From Nanobdellota archaeon (lineage in GTDB: Archaea; Nanobdellota; Nanobdellia; Parvarchaeales; Parvarchaeaceae): DNA of 64,000 nucleotides. Below, piece by piece: positions 28,752 through 36,687 of this stretch; the stretch's first letter is position 1; each line of letters starts with the position of its first letter. The notes below the pieces were generated by a model that saw only the letters and a program-made list of their open reading frames with translations, was not told where the DNA came from and did not search any database. The position numbers were made by a program, and so were the translations under genes. The DNA lies in NCBI GenBank assembly GCA_021852265.1, contig JAJZNV010000016.1, forward strand, positions 189-64,188, read 5' to 3'.

Positions 28752-29279
28752 ATGAAATTAAAGCAGGGACAGTTTTTATTTCTACCGGATTGGCTCAGAC
28801 CTGCTTTAGCGCAGCCATTCGGCACCACAATGTCCGAGGAGGAGACAGTAAAGAAGCTTGAAAAGAGAGATACTTACATAATTACGGTGGGAGATGAGAC
28901 TACGAAGACTCTTATACGATATGGTATTGAGCCCAATCTCGCCATTTTTGACCTTAAGACTAAAAGAAGAGAAACGCAGGATTCGGAGCTGCAGAAACAT
29001 TATGTTACACGGGAACGTATTAAGAATCCGCAAAAACAGATAACTTTCGACCTTTGGCACGCAATAGAGAAAAGCCTAAAAAGGAAAAAAGCGGCGATAC
29101 AGGTAAACGGCGAGGAAGATCTCGCAGCTTTGCCGTGTGCTTATATGGCAAAAGATGGCTCCGTGATGCTGTATGGTATACCAAATGTAGGCATAAGTTT
29201 TGTTTTAATAGACAATGGTGTGAAGGCGAAAGTAAAAAACCTTATAGACCAAATGGAAGTAAAGTCAGCTAAGTCCTGA
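28752..29279 (+). CDS. DUF359 protein = archaeal GTP-dependent dephospho-CoA kinase family
   Basis: LRPALAQPFG...YIITVGDETTKTLIRYGIEPNLAIFDLKTKRRE follows the DUF359 core pattern (VGDxV...G..P...I.D.KT.R). Confidence 0.7.
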   Translation: MKLKQGQFLFLPDWLRPALAQPFGTTMSEEETVKKLEKRDTYIITVGDETTKTLIRYGIEPNLAIFDLKTKRRETQDSELQKHYVTRERIKNPQKQITFDLWHAIEKSLKRKKAAIQVNGEEDLAALPCAYMAKDGSVMLYGIPNVGISFVLIDNGVKAKVKNLIDQMEVKSAKS

Positions 29280-29760
29280 ATCGATCTATAAATGTTTGCA
29301 CAGTTTTTTCTGGCAGGTACTTTTTTACCAATTCCTTCCACCCTGTATTCCCAACAAGCCCCTTTACGAGGCTTGAGCTAATCTCTGTCAATTCACGGGG
29401 AGGCATGAGAAAAACCGTTAATATCTCCGGTCTTATGTCAGAATTTATGTGCATCACTCCTCGTTCAAACTCATAGTCGCCATTGGAGCGTATACCGCGC
29501 AGGATGTAATCAGCATTTATAGATTTAGCATATTCAACAAGAAAATCGCCTTCGAAACTTGCAATCTTGACATTTAAATATTCCTTTGTGCACTTCCTAA
29601 GCATTTCTAATCTCTCTTGTAAAGAAAACGTGGTTCTCTTATTCGGGTTTATACCGACAGCTACAACCAGCTCATCAAATAGTTTCGAACCATTTTGTAT
29701 CATCCACAGGTGACCATTTGTTATCGGATCAAAGCTTCCTGCATAGATTGCTCTTCTCAT
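29269..29760 (-). CDS. coaD: phosphopantetheine adenylyltransferase, bacterial CoaD type
   Basis: MRRAIYAGSFDPITNGHLWMI (the T/HxGH nucleotidyltransferase motif as in bacterial CoaD), ISSSLVK, and a 163-aa length. Confidence 0.88.
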   Translation of the reverse strand: MRRAIYAGSFDPITNGHLWMIQNGSKLFDELVVAVGINPNKRTTFSLQERLEMLRKCTKEYLNVKIASFEGDFLVEYAKSINADYILRGIRSNGDYEFERGVMHINSDIRPEILTVFLMPPRELTEISSSLVKGLVGNTGWKELVKKYLPEKTVQTFIDRFRT

Positions 29761-29814: not shown

Positions 29815-30732
29815 ATGATAGTCGCACTATTATCATCAAAAGAGCTGAGTGAAAATGTTATTCATGGTGTAATATCCAAAAAATTGGATATAATAAATAA
29901 TTTACAGATGGCCGCCGGCAAACATGAAGAAACTATAGTTTATGCTGTGGACTACCCCTCCTCAATAGTGTCTCTGCTGCGTGCAATATCCATAGCAGAC
30001 ACATGTATTATAATAGTAAATCAGGAGGTGTCTAGCCTGGACGCAGAGCTGGTTTTGGCAGTAGAATATTCAGGTATATCAGAGGGAATTATCGTATACG
30101 ATGAATATTCGGATACGGCATCCTTTTCAAAGTTCTTCTCTGCATACAAAGCCGGCAAATTTAGGATGATTAGCGCTGGAGAGGAATATAGATTTGAAAG
30201 TGCATCCGCGGGAAAAAATCCTGGATTAAAATATATCTCCATAGACAAGCACTTTATAGTCAAGGGCATAGGAAATGTCATACTCGGTTTCACTCTAAAT
30301 GGGAGCGTGAATAAGGGAGACCGGATGGTTTTATTACCCTCTTTAAAGGAAGTGGCAATCAAAAGCATCCAGGTTATGGACAAAGACGTCTCATCCGCGG
30401 AATCGGGTCTTCATGTGGGGCTTGCCCTGAATAATGTAAATGAAAATGATCTTGATCTGAACTATAGCGTCTCTTCTTCTAAGGAGATAAGTAATACTTA
30501 CAAATGCAAACTAGTTAAATCCGCCCTTTTTAAGGGAGATCCTTTTGCATCAAAGGGATTATGTTGCTCAATACTCGGTAAAAACTTGACTGTGGCATTG
30601 GCAACAGGGGAAAACAGTCAAAGCATCCTGTTTAATAAACCGATTATCAGGGCTAATGGGAAACACGTTCTTGCCGATGCCAGTTTATCTGTTGGTAAAA
30701 ATAGGATAGTCGGCAGCTTTGAACTTGATTAA
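29815..30732 (+). CDS. EF-Tu/SelB-like protein with degenerate G domain and intact domain-II-like beta-barrel
   Basis: FIVKGIGNVILGFTLNGSVNKGDRMVLLPSLKEVAIKSIQVMDKDVSSAESGLHVGLAL resembles translation-factor domain II. The N-terminal region has no GxxxxGK(S/T), DxxG or NKxD. Start moved to the ATG at 29815 because the track start overlaps coaD. Confidence 0.4.
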   Translation: MIVALLSSKELSENVIHGVISKKLDIINNLQMAAGKHEETIVYAVDYPSSIVSLLRAISIADTCIIIVNQEVSSLDAELVLAVEYSGISEGIIVYDEYSDTASFSKFFSAYKAGKFRMISAGEEYRFESASAGKNPGLKYISIDKHFIVKGIGNVILGFTLNGSVNKGDRMVLLPSLKEVAIKSIQVMDKDVSSAESGLHVGLALNNVNENDLDLNYSVSSSKEISNTYKCKLVKSALFKGDPFASKGLCCSILGKNLTVALATGENSQSILFNKPIIRANGKHVLADASLSVGKNRIVGSFELD

Positions 30733-30775
30733 CACCGCTATTTAGTATTAAATAAGTCGATGCTTTAATCTTGTT

Positions 30776-31822
30776 ATGCATTTTGGAGTAACATTTGACT
30801 CAAAGGACAGGGCTAGTCTTGATGTAGTAACTGGCATATGTAAATTTTTAAGAGAATCAAAGCATGATGTTTTTCTAGAAGAAAAGATAAAGAACTCACC
30901 AAAAAACACCAAAGTGTCTTCAATAAAGTCTATGGAGGTGGATATTCTAATCTCCGTAGGTAACAGCTTTAACGTACTAAGGACATTCAGGGAGCTTGGA
31001 CACACAAAAATACCAGTGCTGAGTGTTTCAACTTCTCCGACAAATTTTTTACCTGAGATAACTCCAGATCAATTTCCAAACGCACTGGAGAAGATTCAGA
31101 AAAAAGATTATGTGATTGAGGAGCATTCACGGCTCGAAATAAAAAATGGAAACGGCGAGATGCCGATGGCCTTAAATGATATAGTGATAACCTCAAAGAA
31201 AAGTGCGACAATAGTTTCCTACAGTGTTATTATAGATGGCAAACTAGCATTTAAAGATATAGGAGATGGTGTAATTATTTCGACACCGACGGGTTCTACT
31301 GGATATTCTGCTTCTGCAGGTGGTCCGGTAATTTTTCCAGAGGCAGAAGTATTGGTTATAACTCCGGTATCTTCTCTAAACCAGAACAAGCCGGTAATAA
31401 TCAATGATTCTAGCATAATACAGATAAAATCTATATATGGCAGCGTAGGCGCGGAGATTGTCATTGATGGACGACAGAGGACAAATATAACCGGAAATGA
31501 AGTTATAATAAAGAACGCCCTCGCACCCGCGGAATTCATAAAGTTTAAAGAATTCGATAAGAACCCTCTGGAAAAATTGAAGAAGAGGATGGAATCTGGT
31601 AATCAAATAGCGATAACCGCACCGCCCTCCGCAAAATTTATATTCAAGGTCCTTCAGTATGAGGGCGCATTGACTCAAAAAGAGCTTATTAGCATGACTG
31701 CCATGCCTGCAAGGACCGTCAGGTCCGGTTTAAATTATCTATTTAAAGTAGGGCTGGTGGATGAACAAAAAGTACTCAGAGATGCACGTTATAGCGTCTA
31801 TTATATAAAAAATAAACAATAA
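30776..31822 (+). CDS. NAD-kinase-like protein with degenerate GGDG motif fused to a C-terminal winged-helix DNA-binding domain
   Basis: NADK motifs ALNDIVI and GDGVIISTPTGSTGYSASAGGPVI are present, but the GGDG position reads GNSF (30959..30970). The C-terminal 75 aa or so (FKVLQYEGALTQKELISMTAMPARTVRSGLNYLFKVGLVDE) look like a MarR/ArsR-like wHTH. Confidence 0.7.
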   Translation: MHFGVTFDSKDRASLDVVTGICKFLRESKHDVFLEEKIKNSPKNTKVSSIKSMEVDILISVGNSFNVLRTFRELGHTKIPVLSVSTSPTNFLPEITPDQFPNALEKIQKKDYVIEEHSRLEIKNGNGEMPMALNDIVITSKKSATIVSYSVIIDGKLAFKDIGDGVIISTPTGSTGYSASAGGPVIFPEAEVLVITPVSSLNQNKPVIINDSSIIQIKSIYGSVGAEIVIDGRQRTNITGNEVIIKNALAPAEFIKFKEFDKNPLEKLKKRMESGNQIAITAPPSAKFIFKVLQYEGALTQKELISMTAMPARTVRSGLNYLFKVGLVDEQKVLRDARYSVYYIKNKQ

Positions 31823-31858: not shown

Positions 31859-33298
31859 TTATTTTTGTATGGTTCTCTCTATGCTTTTAGCCTCTTCTAT
31901 GAGATCCTGTTTTAGCTTGGACAATCTATCGCTTAATTTTACGGGATAAGTTTCCGCTCCCGATATCTTTTTGTACCTATCAGGAATTAGTGCCAATTCA
32001 GCTCCGCAACGTCGTTTTATTTCGTCTAATTTAGGGAAGTCATATACAATCTTTCCATTTGAAATGACTGGAACCAATAGTGGCTTGGCCCCTTGTGGTG
32101 GCAGCTCCTCCCACATGGAAATCTCATCGTGTGAGTATGTGCCACTTTCTGCAATGCGATATACCTGTTTTTTCCCAGGAAGTGTAGTTTTTTCGATATC
32201 CTCGCTTATTTTTATCTTTGGTATGACCTTCCCTTCCTTTTTTATTTCGACTAGTTTGTAAACTCCGCCAAGGGCGGACACTTCTCCCTCTTTAGTTAGA
32301 GAGTTATAATTAGCGCCGGTTATGAGTCTTGTACCAACACCAAATCCGTCTATGGGGGACCCTTTCTCCACAAGTTCATTCACTTTGTACTCATCAAGGT
32401 CGCTGCTGACCATAATCTTTGTGTCTTTGAATCCTTCAAAATCGAGAATCTCCCTTACCTTTTTGCTCAGCATAAATAAGTCCCCGCTATCTAGCCTGAC
32501 TCCTTTCAAATCATAACCCTTCGCCTTTAACTCTTTGCCAATAGTGCACGCATTTCTGGCTCCTTGGAGGGTATCATAAGTGTCTATAAGCAGAACGGCA
32601 TTGTGCGGAAAAGATTCCGCGTATTCTCTAAAAGCACTAATCTCAGAATCTCTTTCCTGTACAAACTTGTGTGGCATAGTACCAACATAAGGGATACCAA
32701 ATTTTTTACCCGCTAGTACGAGTGCGCTTCCAACAGAACCGCCTATATAAGCGGCTCTTGCACCAAGCACTGCAGCGTCTCTACCTTGTGCACGTCTAGC
32801 ACCGAATTCTAGTACCGTCCTACCTTTTGCAGCGTTTACGACCCTAGACGCCTTAGTAGCTACGAGAGTCTGGAAATTCATTACGTTCAATATGTATGTC
32901 TCAAATAATTGAACATCTATTGATGGCCCAGTTATGCTTAGTATAGGCTCATTCGGGAAAACGGGTGTCCCTTCAGGTATAGCATACACGTCACCTTTGA
33001 ACTTGAAATTTTCAAGGTATGCCAGGAAGTCTTTATTAAAATCTTTGCCAGAAGTTTTTTTAAGCCATCCGCCATCCTTCTTACTCAAGCGATAGTTCAT
33101 TATGAAGGAGATTACCTGTTCCAATCCTGCAGCTATCATATAAGAACCAAGGTGCTTTGGCACTTTCCTAAAGAAAAATGTCTCCGTTATAATATCTCTA
33201 TTTTTATGATCAAAATCTGCTTTTCCGCCGGTCAATTCATAGTAATCCAGAAACAGCGCGAGCTCGTCTTGCTCTATTAAAGAATTGTTAAGCTTCAT
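31859..33298 (-). CDS. pncB: nicotinate phosphoribosyltransferase
   Basis: The 479-aa length and the motifs LEFGARRAQG and GTMPH/HKFV are typical of NAPRTase. Confidence 0.88.
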   Translation of the reverse strand: MKLNNSLIEQDELALFLDYYELTGGKADFDHKNRDIITETFFFRKVPKHLGSYMIAAGLEQVISFIMNYRLSKKDGGWLKKTSGKDFNKDFLAYLENFKFKGDVYAIPEGTPVFPNEPILSITGPSIDVQLFETYILNVMNFQTLVATKASRVVNAAKGRTVLEFGARRAQGRDAAVLGARAAYIGGSVGSALVLAGKKFGIPYVGTMPHKFVQERDSEISAFREYAESFPHNAVLLIDTYDTLQGARNACTIGKELKAKGYDLKGVRLDSGDLFMLSKKVREILDFEGFKDTKIMVSSDLDEYKVNELVEKGSPIDGFGVGTRLITGANYNSLTKEGEVSALGGVYKLVEIKKEGKVIPKIKISEDIEKTTLPGKKQVYRIAESGTYSHDEISMWEELPPQGAKPLLVPVISNGKIVYDFPKLDEIKRRCGAELALIPDRYKKISGAETYPVKLSDRLSKLKQDLIEEAKSIERTIQK

Positions 33299-33480
33299 AT
33301 CGTTATAATCTAGATACTCCTTGTCATAATTTATTCTTAATACCTAAGGCAATTTTTTCACATTGCCTAATTCAATTACAAGATTTACCGCTAGTTTACA
33401 CTATTAATTTGATTGCAGCTATATACTCTTCGTGCACGGACAAGCTTGAATCAAGAGTCCGTAAACTGGAGGAATGAATT

Positions 33481-34116
33481 ATGTCTAAAAAAGCATTGTT
33501 GGTTGTGGATATGGTGAATGATTTTCTAAATAAGGATGTTAATCCAAGTGTGAGTTGTCCAAGAGGTTTATCGATATTACCGAACGTTACGAAACTCGCA
33601 CGTTTTGCCCTTGAAAGTGGCATAACGCTCATCTATTGTAGCGATGCGCACCTTCCATCAGATTATGAGCTGAAAGTGTGGGGACCGCACTCAATGCAGG
33701 GGACAAAGGGAAGTGAGATCGTACCTTGGTTGCCTACTGATAATCTATATACTATAAAGAGAGGAGAAACTCTGAATAAAGTGCTTGCTATTAAAACTAA
33801 TGGACCATTTAATGTTGAGAAGGGGACTTATAGTGGGTTTAGGGACAATGGTGGTATAGATACTGCACTGGACAATCTGCTAAAACTAAAAAAGATAGAC
33901 ACATTGTATATTACCGGGCTAACCACCGGGATATGTGACAGGCATACCTCTGCAGAGGCATTCTTCAGAGGATATAATATAGTCCTAGTTGAAGATGCTG
34001 TAGAGGGCTTCACAGCGGAAGAGAATGAGCAGGGAAAAGCATACATAAAAGCAAATTACGGTGCACGCGTATTAGGCACAGAAGAGGCTCTTACAGAATT
34101 CAAAAATGGGGCATGA
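33481..34116 (+). CDS. pncA: isochorismatase-family hydrolase, likely nicotinamidase
   Basis: KKALLVVDMVNDF, YITGLTTGICDRHT (catalytic Cys context), and its position between pncB and nadE. Confidence 0.75.
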   Translation: MSKKALLVVDMVNDFLNKDVNPSVSCPRGLSILPNVTKLARFALESGITLIYCSDAHLPSDYELKVWGPHSMQGTKGSEIVPWLPTDNLYTIKRGETLNKVLAIKTNGPFNVEKGTYSGFRDNGGIDTALDNLLKLKKIDTLYITGLTTGICDRHTSAEAFFRGYNIVLVEDAVEGFTAEENEQGKAYIKANYGARVLGTEEALTEFKNGA

Positions 34117-34976
34117 GGTTTGTATTTATGAATGTTCCACACGAGCTAGAAATTGATCCGAAAAAAGCGATTGATTATGGAATCAGCTGGGTAAGAGATT
34201 ACTTTAGCAAATCTGGATTTAAGACTGCTGTCATAGGTATCTCCGGCGGAAGTGATTCAGCTTTTACAGCGTATATTACATCAAAAGCAATCGGCAAAAG
34301 CAATGTTGTTGGAGTGATGTTACCCGAGGATAGAGTTACACCCGAAATTGACACCATACATGCCAAAGAGCTAATAAAATCGCTTGGGATAAACTCACTC
34401 GAGATAAACTTAACCGATATTGTGCGAGTAATGTCGAAACTAGATCCGGAACTTCTCAAAATAAAGAATAGGATAGCATATGCTAACGTAAAAGCCAGAC
34501 TAAGGATGGTATTGCTCTACAAAGAAGCAAATAAGCGCAATGCACTTGTAGTCGGCACGGATGACCGAAGCGAGCACATACTTGGTTATTACACAAAATA
34601 TGGGGACGGCGGTGTCGATATAAATGTACCAGAATACCTGTACAAAACACAGCTGAGGGGCATTCTGGAATATATAGCTTTGAAGGAAAAGACAAAGGTG
34701 ATGAAAGAGATAGCCGATAAAAAGCCTTCGCCACAGCTTTGGGAAGGGCAAACTGCCGAGGGCGAATTAGACGCAGACTACCAGACGATGGATAGAATAT
34801 TTTATTATCTTAAGGATTATAAGACAAAGCTCTCTGCGCAACAGGTGGCTGAGAAATTACACGTTGACAAAAAACTGGTTCTTAAGCTGATTAGCATGGA
34901 AGAGAAAAATAAGCACAAAGATAATGCTCCGGCAGCACCTCCGATAAATTATTCTTTTAATTTGTATGGTGCATAA
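34113..34976 (+). CDS. nadE: NH3-dependent NAD+ synthetase
   Basis: The PP-loop GISGGSDSA, GTDDRSEHILGYYTKYGDG, and a 4-nt overlap with pncA. Confidence 0.9.
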   Translation: MRFVFMNVPHELEIDPKKAIDYGISWVRDYFSKSGFKTAVIGISGGSDSAFTAYITSKAIGKSNVVGVMLPEDRVTPEIDTIHAKELIKSLGINSLEINLTDIVRVMSKLDPELLKIKNRIAYANVKARLRMVLLYKEANKRNALVVGTDDRSEHILGYYTKYGDGGVDINVPEYLYKTQLRGILEYIALKEKTKVMKEIADKKPSPQLWEGQTAEGELDADYQTMDRIFYYLKDYKTKLSAQQVAEKLHVDKKLVLKLISMEEKNKHKDNAPAAPPINYSFNLYGA

Positions 34977-35889
34977 TAATTTTATGGACAACATTGTCGT
35001 TGTGCGTGGAACCGCTTCAAACGGAATAGCTGAAGAAATATCCGCTATTCTTAATGTACCAATGATAGGCGCAGAATATCACATACTCGCGGATGGAGAG
35101 TCTTATGTGCGCATACCCGAAAAAGTTTCCGGCAAAATCGTTATACTAGTACAATCTACTTATCCTCCACAGGATAAGCATCTAATAGAACTTTTCCTGC
35201 TTATGGATGCTATAAAGAGCTATAATCCAAAAAAGATAATCCTAATCGTGCCATATCTGGCATATCTAAGACAGAACAAAAGATTCAAAGAAGGCGAGCC
35301 GATAAGCGCCGACATCATGCTAAAGATGATAAAGAACGCAGGAGCAGATGCATTGGTAACGATAGAGCCGCACAGGCCAGAGTCTTTGGTGGTTTTCGGC
35401 GGAAAGTCAATGATCGCAGACCCTCTTCCAGCTTATGTCGCTGCCGTTCCAAAAGGACTTAAAAAGGCAGTTGTACTGTCGCCAGACAACGGCGGATTAC
35501 AGAGAGCGGAACGCTTTGCAAAACTCTTGGGCACGCCTTTCACATCTATAGATAAGGAGAGGGACAAAACTACCGGTAAAATCTACATAAAATCAGAAAG
35601 CACCTTTGATTTTAAGAACCGGGATGTCATCATCATTGATGATGTGATAAGCACTGGTGGTACAGTGGCACAAGCCGCCAAATTTGTAAAATCCGAAGGC
35701 GCGAATAAAGTGCTTGTCATAGCAGCGCACCTTATTATGGTTGGTAATTGCGGGAAGAAAATAAAGAATGCTGGCGTATCCAGTATAACTGGTCTCAATA
35801 CTGTACCGAGCAAAGGAACGAGGGTAGTAGACGCTTCCCGTATCTTGACAGAATCCATAGAAGGTATCTTAAGGCTAAATGAATATTAA
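34966..35889 (+). CDS. prs: ribose-phosphate pyrophosphokinase (PRPP synthetase)
   Basis: The PRPP-binding loop VIIIDDVISTGGT, LVTIEPH and VVLSPDNGG. Confidence 0.9.
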   Translation: MVHNNFMDNIVVVRGTASNGIAEEISAILNVPMIGAEYHILADGESYVRIPEKVSGKIVILVQSTYPPQDKHLIELFLLMDAIKSYNPKKIILIVPYLAYLRQNKRFKEGEPISADIMLKMIKNAGADALVTIEPHRPESLVVFGGKSMIADPLPAYVAAVPKGLKKAVVLSPDNGGLQRAERFAKLLGTPFTSIDKERDKTTGKIYIKSESTFDFKNRDVIIIDDVISTGGTVAQAAKFVKSEGANKVLVIAAHLIMVGNCGKKIKNAGVSSITGLNTVPSKGTRVVDASRILTESIEGILRLNEY

Positions 35890-35904: not shown

Positions 35905-36687
35905 ATGGTTATGAAAGTTAAACTGGTAAGCAAGCAGCAGTATCCACAGCTTAAGAAATTATATAAAGAATTTGATGTTGGGGAAGAAGGAGACATCTGC
36001 ATTGCCGTTGGCGGCGACGGCACTTTTATTAAGGCGGCAAGGGAATTCGACGGACCCATCTTGCCAGTGCGCAGTGAGGAGGTCGGAAGCACGGGTTATT
36101 ATTCAGATATTGGTTTATCAAAGATAGACATTATAATAGAACGAATAAAACACAAAAAATATCGTGTAGAAGACTTAAGCAGGAAACTGGAAATACGTTA
36201 TAAGGATAAGGTCTATTATGCCATAAATGAGGCACTTCTAAGAAATAAGTCAAAGGAGATTTACTTCAACGTATACACGGTAGAGAACGGTAGAAAACGC
36301 CTGCTATACCCTTATACGGTAAGCGGTGACGGTCTTCTTATAACTGGAAAGGTAGGTTCTACTGCGTATAATAGGACTGCAGGCGGACCGATTATATTAA
36401 GTCAGGATATAATTTGTGTGAACTTTCTTTATCCAGAAAGCCTGTTTACAAATCCGTTAGTCATAAGCGGGGATTCTGATATATATATAGAGCTTGCAAA
36501 GAGCGCCGGGACTCTCATGACAGATAGCATAGAAATCGCAGACTTAAGCGTGAAGGAGTCTTTTTACGTTAGACAGTCAAAGAAAACCGTTAAAATCATA
36601 CGCCTAGACGGATTTAAGGAAGAATTTTCTGAAAAACTTGCACGTATGATACAGAGCAAGATGGTCGACGGTCTGTCCAGTAGTTAG
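35905..36687 (+). CDS. ppnK: NAD kinase (intact GGDG motif)
   Basis: ICIAVGGDGTFIKAA, AINEALL and GDGLLITGKVGSTAYNRTAGGPIIL. Confidence 0.85.
   Translation: MVMKVKLVSKQQYPQLKKLYKEFDVGEEGDICIAVGGDGTFIKAAREFDGPILPVRSEEVGSTGYYSDIGLSKIDIIIERIKHKKYRVEDLSRKLEIRYKDKVYYAINEALLRNKSKEIYFNVYTVENGRKRLLYPYTVSGDGLLITGKVGSTAYNRTAGGPIILSQDIICVNFLYPESLFTNPLVISGDSDIYIELAKSAGTLMTDSIEIADLSVKESFYVRQSKKTVKIIRLDGFKEEFSEKLARMIQSKMVDGLSSS

Follow-up and report, generated by a model that had tools for sequence, protein, structure and literature searches.

A NAD kinase-like protein fused to a winged helix: a candidate regulator of NAD(P) genes in archaea

The locus and the fusion protein

A 64-kb stretch of DNA from a Nanobdellota archaeon, referred to here as the window, contains a gene that joins a NAD kinase (NADK)-like body to a C-terminal winged helix-turn-helix (wHTH) domain. 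The gene occupies 30776..31822 on the + strand and is an open reading frame (ORF) of 348 aa. Its product, called the fusion below, is a predicted regulator on the combined evidence of Pfam (NAD_kinase and NAD_kinase_C) and AlphaFold2. The gene order in the window is CoaD (-), a protein with EF-Tu domain 2 (+), the fusion (+), pncB (-) and pncA-nadE-prs-NADK (+), the last group with overlapping gene ends. The fusion lies tail-to-tail with pncB, with the stop codons 36 nt apart, and pncB is divergent from pncA-nadE-prs-NADK. The original prediction placed the fusion at the head of a pncB-pncA-nadE-prs-ppnK cluster. The neighbours are as it described, but the fusion is convergent with pncB and does not head one operon.

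These NAD genes are the predicted targets of the regulator. Nicotinate phosphoribosyltransferase, the product of pncB (31859..33298, - strand), matches NF009131 at 479.6 bits (cut-off 330) and TIGR01513 at 468.6 bits (cut-off 297). The divergent target operon on the + strand comprises pncA (33481-34116; Pfam Isochorismatase), nadE (34113-34976; Pfam NAD_synthase, with TIGR00552 above cut-off) and prs (34966-35889; Pfam Pribosyltran_N, with TIGR01251 above cut-off). Its last gene, at 35905..36687 on the + strand, encodes a short canonical NAD kinase of 260 aa ('NK2'). A second NADK with intact GGDGT had been predicted at this position, and both the ORF and the Pfam matches (NAD_kinase and NAD_kinase_C, above cut-off) bear it out. 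GGDG is kept in 118 of the 119 closest full-length homologues of this protein, and the NE motif is likewise kept in 118. Its closest named homologues come from metagenome-assembled genomes (MAGs) of Ca. Parvarchaeota, Micrarchaeota and Marsarchaeota, and for both NADK paralogues the nearest relatives with a name are found in MAGs of the same three groups. An initially assumed Thermoplasmatota origin of the window was rejected on account of these relatives and of the mine-drainage or tailings samples. Judged from its sequence, the 260-aa product is likely the working NADK of the locus.

The fusion matches the Pfam model NAD_kinase at residues 42-112 (PF01513; 37.2 bits, cut-off 25.5) and NAD_kinase_C at residues 133-255 (PF20143; 81.8 bits, cut-off 23.7). 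All 18 NCBIfam NADK equivalog models match it below their curated cut-offs, the top one being NF002984 with 164.3 bits against 326. A phmmer alignment to NAD kinases of the Protein Data Bank (PDB) sets 'isvGNSFnvL' of the fusion against 'vvvGGDGsmL' of the solved enzymes. The degenerate GGDG position is G62-N63-S64-F65 (30959..30970, + strand), with Ser64 in the place of the catalytic Asp, and the reading G-N-S-F in the original prediction is thus upheld. In characterized enzymes the GGDG Asp deprotonates the 2'-OH of NAD, and M. tuberculosis Ppnk loses its activity when this Asp is mutated (PMC8553519). The GxNxGxLGFL loop of canonical NADK is also degenerate in the same alignment and reads SVSTSPTNFL. 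The NAD-binding residues of NAD kinases belong to the NE/D motif and conserved region II (PMC8553519). Both of these substrate-binding motifs were expected to be kept, and both are found in the fusion. The short NE/D motif is N134-D135 (ALN134D; 31175..31180, + strand), with N134 invariant in 82/82 representatives of the fusion family. Region II is G163DGVIISTPTGSTGYSASAGGP184 (31262..31327, + strand), with D164, P171 and G173 invariant in all 82.

The full-length AlphaFold2 model, built on a 72-sequence alignment, has a predicted local distance difference test (pLDDT) score of 90 and a predicted template modelling (pTM) score of 0.79. Its first 260 residues superpose on NAD kinases, which are the best Foldseek matches (E 1e-27, TM 0.83-0.88 on the target). 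The fusion shares the two-domain fold, the NE/D motif and region II with canonical NAD kinase (NadK/PpnK; EC 2.7.1.23; PDB 7QVS, 4HAO, 1SUW). Unlike the canonical enzyme, it has GNSF for GGDG, the degenerate loop, a C-terminal linker and wHTH of ~85 aa, and scores under every equivalog cut-off. Measured by the GGDG Asp, its sequence would place it outside the NAD kinases in catalytic terms.

A linker at residues 263-282 (31562..31621, + strand) connects the NADK body to the wHTH. In this linker pLDDT falls to 67-70, and sequence identity reaches the minimum of the protein. The MarR-type wHTH itself spans residues 283-345 (31622..31810, + strand) and is assigned from AlphaFold2, Foldseek and a profile comparison with the PDB. 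In the model, the last ~65 residues follow the topology H284-296, H301-308, H312-324, E328-333, E336-344. The predicted recognition helix is formed by residues 312-324 (31709-31747, + strand), in which R313 and T314 are invariant and R316 is near-invariant; the wing residues D336 and R338 are invariant in the family. When modelled alone, the domain reaches a pLDDT of 91. Its top Foldseek matches are MarR-family DNA-binding domains (TM 0.80-0.87, rmsd 1.2-1.5 Å), and those solved on operator DNA include MftR 8YLG, HpaR 7EL3, MarR 5H3R and MepR 4LLL. The profile comparison gave AdcR (E 3.8e-5), with AdcR and a Neisseria MarR both at about E 4e-5. The Pfam HTH models run on the single fusion sequence all stay under their gathering cut-offs (MarR_2, 14.5 bits against 27), and precomputed PF12802/PF01047 matches exist for some of its relatives. 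The winged helices of TFE and RPC subunits are also among the weak matches in Pfam and in the profile comparison. A structure prediction of the C-terminal domain had been proposed as a check of the original prediction, and the domain folds as a MarR-type wHTH. The last ~75 aa had been called MarR/ArsR-type; model, Foldseek and profile all give a MarR-like domain, and the ArsR part of that description does not stand.

The fusion and the MarR family (MftR-DNA 8YLG, HpaR-DNA 7EL3, AdcR 3TGN) have in common the H1-H2-H3 core and a two-strand wing with D-x-R. Short palindromic operators are a trait of the MarR family, and the predicted operators of the fusion described below are alike. The N- and C-terminal dimerization helices of MarR have no counterpart in the models of the fusion, which has the ~65-aa wHTH core only. 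As a result, the NADK body must provide for any pairing of the winged helices.

The fusion family

A search of 5.8 billion proteins identified many proteins of 330-350 aa that share the NADK-wHTH architecture. Their named sources are Nitrosopumilus, Nitrososphaerota, Thorarchaeota, Methylarchaceae, Ca. Parvarchaeota and Ca. Borrarchaeum. A genome scan added further fusion loci from Nitrososphaerales, Thorarchaeota, Micrarchaeota, Nitrosopelagicus and Nitrosopumilus, and scanning metagenomes for a peptide pattern specific to the wHTH confirmed at least 557 stretches with the fusion. The genome scan, which used the full-length alignment and in which one pattern was the TPTGST motif, returned mostly bacterial canonical NADKs and 5 fusion loci; its bacterial canonical NADK loci serve as negative controls below. 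Public databases name the fusions 'NAD+ kinase', 'NAD(+)/NADH kinase' or hypothetical. Full-text literature searches found no description of a NADK-wHTH regulator. The fusion family appears to be undescribed, as we found no paper on it.

A maximum-likelihood tree was built from 82 dereplicated fusions together with canonical and short NADKs. The fusions form a single clade (SH-aLRT 94), and the window sequence lies inside it. The NADK-wHTH family is thus monophyletic, spanning DPANN, Asgard and Nitrososphaerota in addition to unnamed metagenome lineages. Basal fusions with GGDG come from a Micrarchaeota locus and from P0092. The full GGDG is present in 7/82 representatives, and most of the family has G-x-D-x, in which the Asp is kept and glycines are replaced. 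The window sequence belongs to a subclade of 12 representatives (SH-aLRT 99) that lacks the Asp. The Asp position is Ser in 12/12 of these, and the next residue is Phe in 11/12. Outside this clade the Asp is kept in 66/70 fusions, and the tree requires at least three independent losses of the GGDG Asp in the family. Since most of them keep the Asp, the fusions outside the window's clade may include bifunctional enzymes.

The wHTH is the best-conserved part of the family protein. Its signature is PPSAKF..L.YEG.LTQKEI....LP.RTVR.AL.YL...G......LRD.RQ.Y., and the whole signature, in the form PPSAKF...LTQKE...RTVR...LRDxR, is present in the window fusion. L293, R313, T314, L322, D336 and R338 are invariant in the wHTH across the family, and N134, D164, P171, G173, D231, G232 and R235 are invariant in the NADK body. 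In addition, G165, T170, S174, T175 and Y177 do not vary within the window's clade and are kept in 67-69 of the 70 other fusions. Within the window's clade, mean pairwise identity is 0.60 for the wHTH, 0.53 for the C-terminal NADK domain and 0.33 for the linker, the lowest value. Because G-x-S-F-N is itself conserved and the NAD-contacting residues are invariant or nearly so, the clade shows purifying selection on binding. Its conservation has the pattern of selection for ligand and DNA binding and not that of the decay of a paralogue. Two checks attached to the original prediction are answered by these results. Alignment with the NADK family confirmed the loss of the Asp, which is fixed in the whole clade while the NAD-binding residues are invariant, and the phyletic survey found the fusion to be widespread in archaea, with linkage to NAD genes.

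Linkage to NAD genes and predicted operators

The association of the fusion with NAD genes extends well beyond the window. The fusion stands beside pncB and the divergent pncA-nadE in relatives at 75%, 66%, 62%, 54% and 47% identity, and it adjoins pncB-pncA-nadE(-NADK) in distant clades (loci L086, L094, L096, L102 and L104). In L087, the fusion adjoins a NUDIX gene and the divergent nadM-pncB, where nadM is the archaeal NMN adenylyltransferase (NMNAT; TIGR01527/NF002243). It is divergent from nadA-nadC-nadX in L117-L124, L137 and L148/L156/L168. In L002 (Thorarchaeota, a named MAG), L128-L133 and L146, it is divergent from nadA, which is alone within reach. The Nitrosopumilus-type fusions, which have GGDKG, have no NAD-gene neighbours at their loci. 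The same short NADK as in the window follows nadE or prs in L085, L094, L102, L104, L170, L171 and L172. In L102 and L104 it stands alongside a fusion that still has GGDGT, which indicates that a dedicated enzyme coexists even where the fusion could still be active. Taken alone, the linkage could mean that a kinase paralogue clusters with its pathway, a reading that the operator evidence opposes.

The intergenic region between pncB and pncA (33299..33480) is one of two regions named in the original prediction as possible binding sites, and it holds a predicted operator pair. An alignment of this region from the window and six relatives contains exactly four conserved blocks, namely two sites and two TATA-like sequences. 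Predicted site 1, AGGCAATTTTTTCAC (33347-33361), has 9/12 arm positions of the palindrome AGGCAA-N3-TTGCCT, is the top match of a position weight matrix (PWM), and adjoins the TATA-like block of pncB. Predicted site 2, TTACAAGATTTACCG (33376-33390), is weak (7/12), lies 29 bp from site 1, and adjoins the TATA-like block of pncA. In L171 and L172 the block of site 2 scores 9/12, and the 29-bp offset is identical. The A/T block AATTTATyCTT (written on the + strand; 33328-33338, alignment columns 31-41) is the putative TATA of pncB on the - strand, ~35 nt upstream of its ATG. The TATTAA block (33402-33410, + strand; alignment columns 105-111) is the putative TATA of pncA-nadE-prs-NADK. No operator was found in the intergenic region between CoaD and the pseudo-GTPase gene. 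A perfect inverted repeat, AGGCAAT-N8-ATTGCCT (33347-33368), was considered and set aside; it is not kept in the 75%-identical L170 and was taken to be lineage-specific or due to chance. It consists of the family half-site with a 10-nt gap, instead of 3, between the AGGCAA and TTGCCT arms.

The sequence AGGyAATTTTTGCAC was recognized by eye as common to the NAD intergenic regions. In a leave-one-out test of the PWM, the top match of the entire locus (16-64 kb, both strands) fell inside the NAD intergenic region in 6/7 loci. The window is one of the six, and the top match of its whole 64 kb is 33345-33363. The full palindrome AGGCAA-N3-TTGCCT (15 bp) is found 50-110 bp upstream of the fusion gene in several other clades, at loci outside the PWM training. 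When one mismatch is allowed, 19 copies lie in the 47 kb that precede fusion or NAD genes by no more than 300 bp. The other 927 kb of these loci contain 3, and the bacterial NADK loci, 1.28 Mb in all, contain 7. The enrichment of the palindrome at fusion and NAD promoters is roughly 125-fold. The sites also tend to be paired. In upstream zones, 37 pairs of sites with at least 8/12 matches are spaced 29-31 bp apart, and 6 pairs account for every other spacing between 20 and 45 bp; outside these zones, and likewise in the controls, the spacings show a flat distribution. Three helical turns between palindromes would fit a dimer of dimers, which is the usual assembly of NADK. A peak at 42 bp in the histogram of site pairs was rejected, as it comes from an unrelated tandem repeat in L005 (85-5170, period of ~510 bp, upstream of a Nitrosopumilus fusion locus).

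At the nadA-type loci, the proximal arm abuts a TATA-like sequence, as with TTGCCT-ATAAATA in L168. This position favours occlusion of the transcription factor B (TFB) recognition element (BRE) and of TFB, and therefore repression. The conserved half-site is paralleled in the protein by R313, T314, R316, D336 and R338 of the wHTH, which are invariant or nearly so across phyla. At the Nitrosopumilus-type loci L126, L140, L160, L162 and L169, a weaker conserved pair is present ~120-150 bp upstream of the fusion, and no NAD genes are nearby. One member of this pair is TTGCAAAAAATTCCT, and its partner is 29-31 bp away. The fusion is possibly autoregulated in ammonia oxidizers.

Several other genes are found near the fusion. 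A tblastn search of the 64-kb window with two NMNAT queries at E <= 1e-5 found no gene for the archaeal NMN/NaMN adenylyltransferase (nadM), and this step must be encoded elsewhere in the genome. In relatives, nadM occurs near the fusion in L081 and L091. The cytidylyltransferase-like gene at 29269-29760 (- strand) is a bacterial-type CoaD (TIGR01510, 170 bits, cut-off 103) and not an NMNAT. It is convergent with a DUF359 gene of the archaeal dephospho-CoA kinase family (28752-29279, + strand) with an overlap of 11 nt, and this pair is kept upstream of the fusion in L170 and L171. The gene at 29815-30732 (+ strand) has EF-Tu domain 2 as its sole Pfam match (PF03144, 30.2 bits) and a weak SelB-like match. 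Its stop lies 43 nt before the fusion, with which it may be co-transcribed. The same position is occupied by a gene of ~304 aa in L170, where PF03144 matches weakly, and by a gene in L171 without a Pfam match. In L172, a SIS-domain gene intervenes between the gene at this position and the fusion. NUDIX hydrolase genes are part of the neighbourhood in L087 (11938-13064) and L083 (18738-19151). In L087 the NUDIX gene is divergent from nadM with an operator pair in between, and the regulon may include an ADP-ribose/NAD pyrophosphatase. In the 62%-identical relative (L081/L082, 7134-8067), nadM and the fusion are separated by a Polbeta nucleotidyltransferase/HepT-like pair of the toxin-antitoxin type.

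A regulatory reading and its alternatives

The 348-aa product is probably a non-catalytic, NAD(P)-sensing transcription factor derived from NAD kinase. The original prediction offered this idea as a hypothesis, and it is supported by the fold, the loss of the motif, the phyletic spread, the linkage to NAD genes and the operator pair. We infer the loss of kinase activity, the DNA binding, the ligand, the oligomeric state and the sign of regulation as follows. The NADK body would not phosphorylate NAD, the catalytic base of GGDG being Ser64. It would keep the NAD(P) pocket and, as in NAD kinases, would probably form a dimer or tetramer. The MarR-type winged helices would then read the two 15-bp sites of the divergent pncB/pncA promoter region (33347-33361 and 33376-33390, with a spacing of 29 bp), each of which shortly precedes a TATA-like block of its own. 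The affinity for DNA would depend on NAD(P)(H) in the pocket, so that salvage, amidation, the supply of phosphoribosyl pyrophosphate (PRPP) and the real NAD kinase could be tuned to the pyridine-nucleotide pool. The regulator probably acts as a repressor, and its likeliest mode would be feedback repression of pncB and pncA-nadE-prs-NADK.

Several points weigh against this interpretation. In archaea, an operator close to the upstream edge of BRE/TATA is also compatible with activation, and a Ser could conceivably support residual catalysis. In the window, 24 sites with at least 9/12 matches occur by chance, and the pair (9/12 and 7/12) is weak relative to the strict palindrome. Since the strict consensus is not distinctive there, support for the sites comes from the PWM rank, the footprint of conservation and the spacing. 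The second intergenic region named in the original prediction, 30733-30775 upstream of the fusion itself, has no operator, unlike that of the autoregulated relatives, and autoregulation is not indicated in the window. Many loci in the operator statistics are near-duplicates, and as a result the counts overstate the number of independent events, with more than 10 distinct clades contributing. Finally, the locus is present in DNA runs from mine drainage and tailings, and no RNA run with the locus was found.

The strongest of the alternatives keeps a DNA-binding regulator but makes it an activator, or gives it NADH/NADPH, NaAD, ADP-ribose, ATP or polyphosphate as effector in place of NAD/NADP. 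At both window promoters the inferred TATA/BRE has the operator on its upstream side, a position that goes with activation for several archaeal regulators. The specificity of the pocket may have changed with the remodelling of the donor-site loops (GGDG to GNSF and GxNxGxLGFL to SVSTSPTNFL), and some relatives have NUDIX genes in the neighbourhood. However, the abutment of proximal arm and TATA-like sequence at the nadA-type loci, as in L168, favours occlusion of BRE/TFB, and all known NAD-contact residues are invariant or nearly so. We regard this alternative as unlikely, roughly a one-in-five proposition in our judgement.

Two further explanations are considerably less probable. A still-active bifunctional NAD kinase and regulator with non-canonical catalysis, comparable to BirA, NadR or RbkR, would account for the intact substrate-binding motifs of the window fusion and for the name NAD+ kinase in public databases. 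Such bifunctionality is plausible for relatives, given the Asp in most of the rest of the family (66/70) and the full GGDG in a few. In the window's clade it is improbable: every member has Ser in place of the catalytic base, characterized NADKs cannot do without the Asp (PMC8553519), a canonical NADK is encoded four genes away, and the equivalog scores are far under cut-off, the best being 164 against 326. Least probable of all, and very doubtful in our view, is that the winged helix is a protein-protein or oligomerization module, the palindromes belong to another factor, and the clustering with NAD genes is that of a pathway paralogue. The Pfam HTH models are indeed below their gathering cut-offs (MarR_2, 14.5 against 27), and the winged helices of TFE and RPC subunits, which appear among the weak matches, are not sequence-specific operator binders. 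This explanation is opposed by the palindrome, which tracks the fusion gene in an autoregulatory position in clades with differing neighbours. The closest structures are DNA-bound MarR domains, and across phyla there is little or no variation in the wing D-x-R, in the R-T-V-R of the recognition helix or in the half-site.

The design of a NAD(P)-sensing factor derived from an enzyme has parallels among known regulators. To our knowledge, the known regulators of NAD metabolism, NadR, NiaR and NrtR, are all bacterial. RbkR is an archaeal riboflavin kinase and regulator that was predicted by comparative genomics and then shown, and it was reported to be bifunctional (Rodionova et al. 2017, PMC5397151). 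Like the fusion, it joins an enzyme of an archaeal cofactor pathway to a winged helix acting on palindromic operators of its own pathway. In contrast, RbkR has the fold of a CTP-dependent riboflavin kinase and serves another cofactor, whereas the fusion has the NADK fold and has lost the catalytic base; no sequence relationship between the two was found in any search made. NrtR consists of a degenerate Nudix enzyme fold and a wHTH, and controls bacterial NAD genes (PMC2330246). In both NrtR and the fusion, a NAD-pathway enzyme fold with a degenerate catalytic motif forms the effector domain, and both are often encoded beside their targets, which for the fusion are predicted ones. NrtR is bacterial, has the Nudix fold and responds to ADP-ribose, whereas the fusion is archaeal and has the NADK fold, and a Nudix domain was not found in the fusion by Pfam. 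The likeness to NrtR is an analogy of design, not homology. The enterobacterial NadR and the NiaR of Bacillus/Clostridium control the genes of NAD biosynthesis and salvage by feedback, each responding to a metabolite of the pathway (PMC5397151; PMC2330245). NadR joins enzyme domains to a DNA-binding domain, as the fusion does, but its NMN adenylyltransferase/RNK domains and the 3H domain of NiaR are unrelated to the fusion, and both regulators are bacterial. No NMNAT, RNK or 3H domain match was found on the fusion in Pfam and NCBIfam.

A broader proposal, to which we give slightly better than an even chance, is that the NADK-wHTH family is the missing master regulator of archaeal NAD(P) homeostasis and that the window's clade is its end-point pseudoenzyme after subfunctionalization. 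The NAD-kinase tetramer would act as the sensor, placing four winged helices on two palindromes three helical turns apart. Its targets would differ by lineage, being either the de novo (nadA-nadC-nadX) or the salvage (pncB-pncA-nadE-nadM) genes. After subfunctionalization with a separate short NADK, the change from Asp to Ser would have become fixed to yield a pure pseudoenzyme transcription factor. The window adds the clade without Asp, a salvage-type predicted regulon and an adjacent canonical NADK. If the proposal is true, relatives that have the Asp or GGDG may still be bifunctional, and the family would provide a natural series from enzyme to regulator.

The consequences concern both annotation and biology. 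The 'NAD+ kinase' labels of the fusions would be a systematic annotation error, which can mislead metabolic reconstructions of small-genome archaea. In the window member, the catalytic base is lost and yet purifying selection is clear, suggesting that what has been conserved is regulation and not catalysis. In the literature searched, no description was found of a transcription factor for NAD metabolism in Archaea. The NADK-wHTH family is a concrete candidate for this role, with a defined operator and target genes, across DPANN, Asgard and ammonia-oxidizing archaea.

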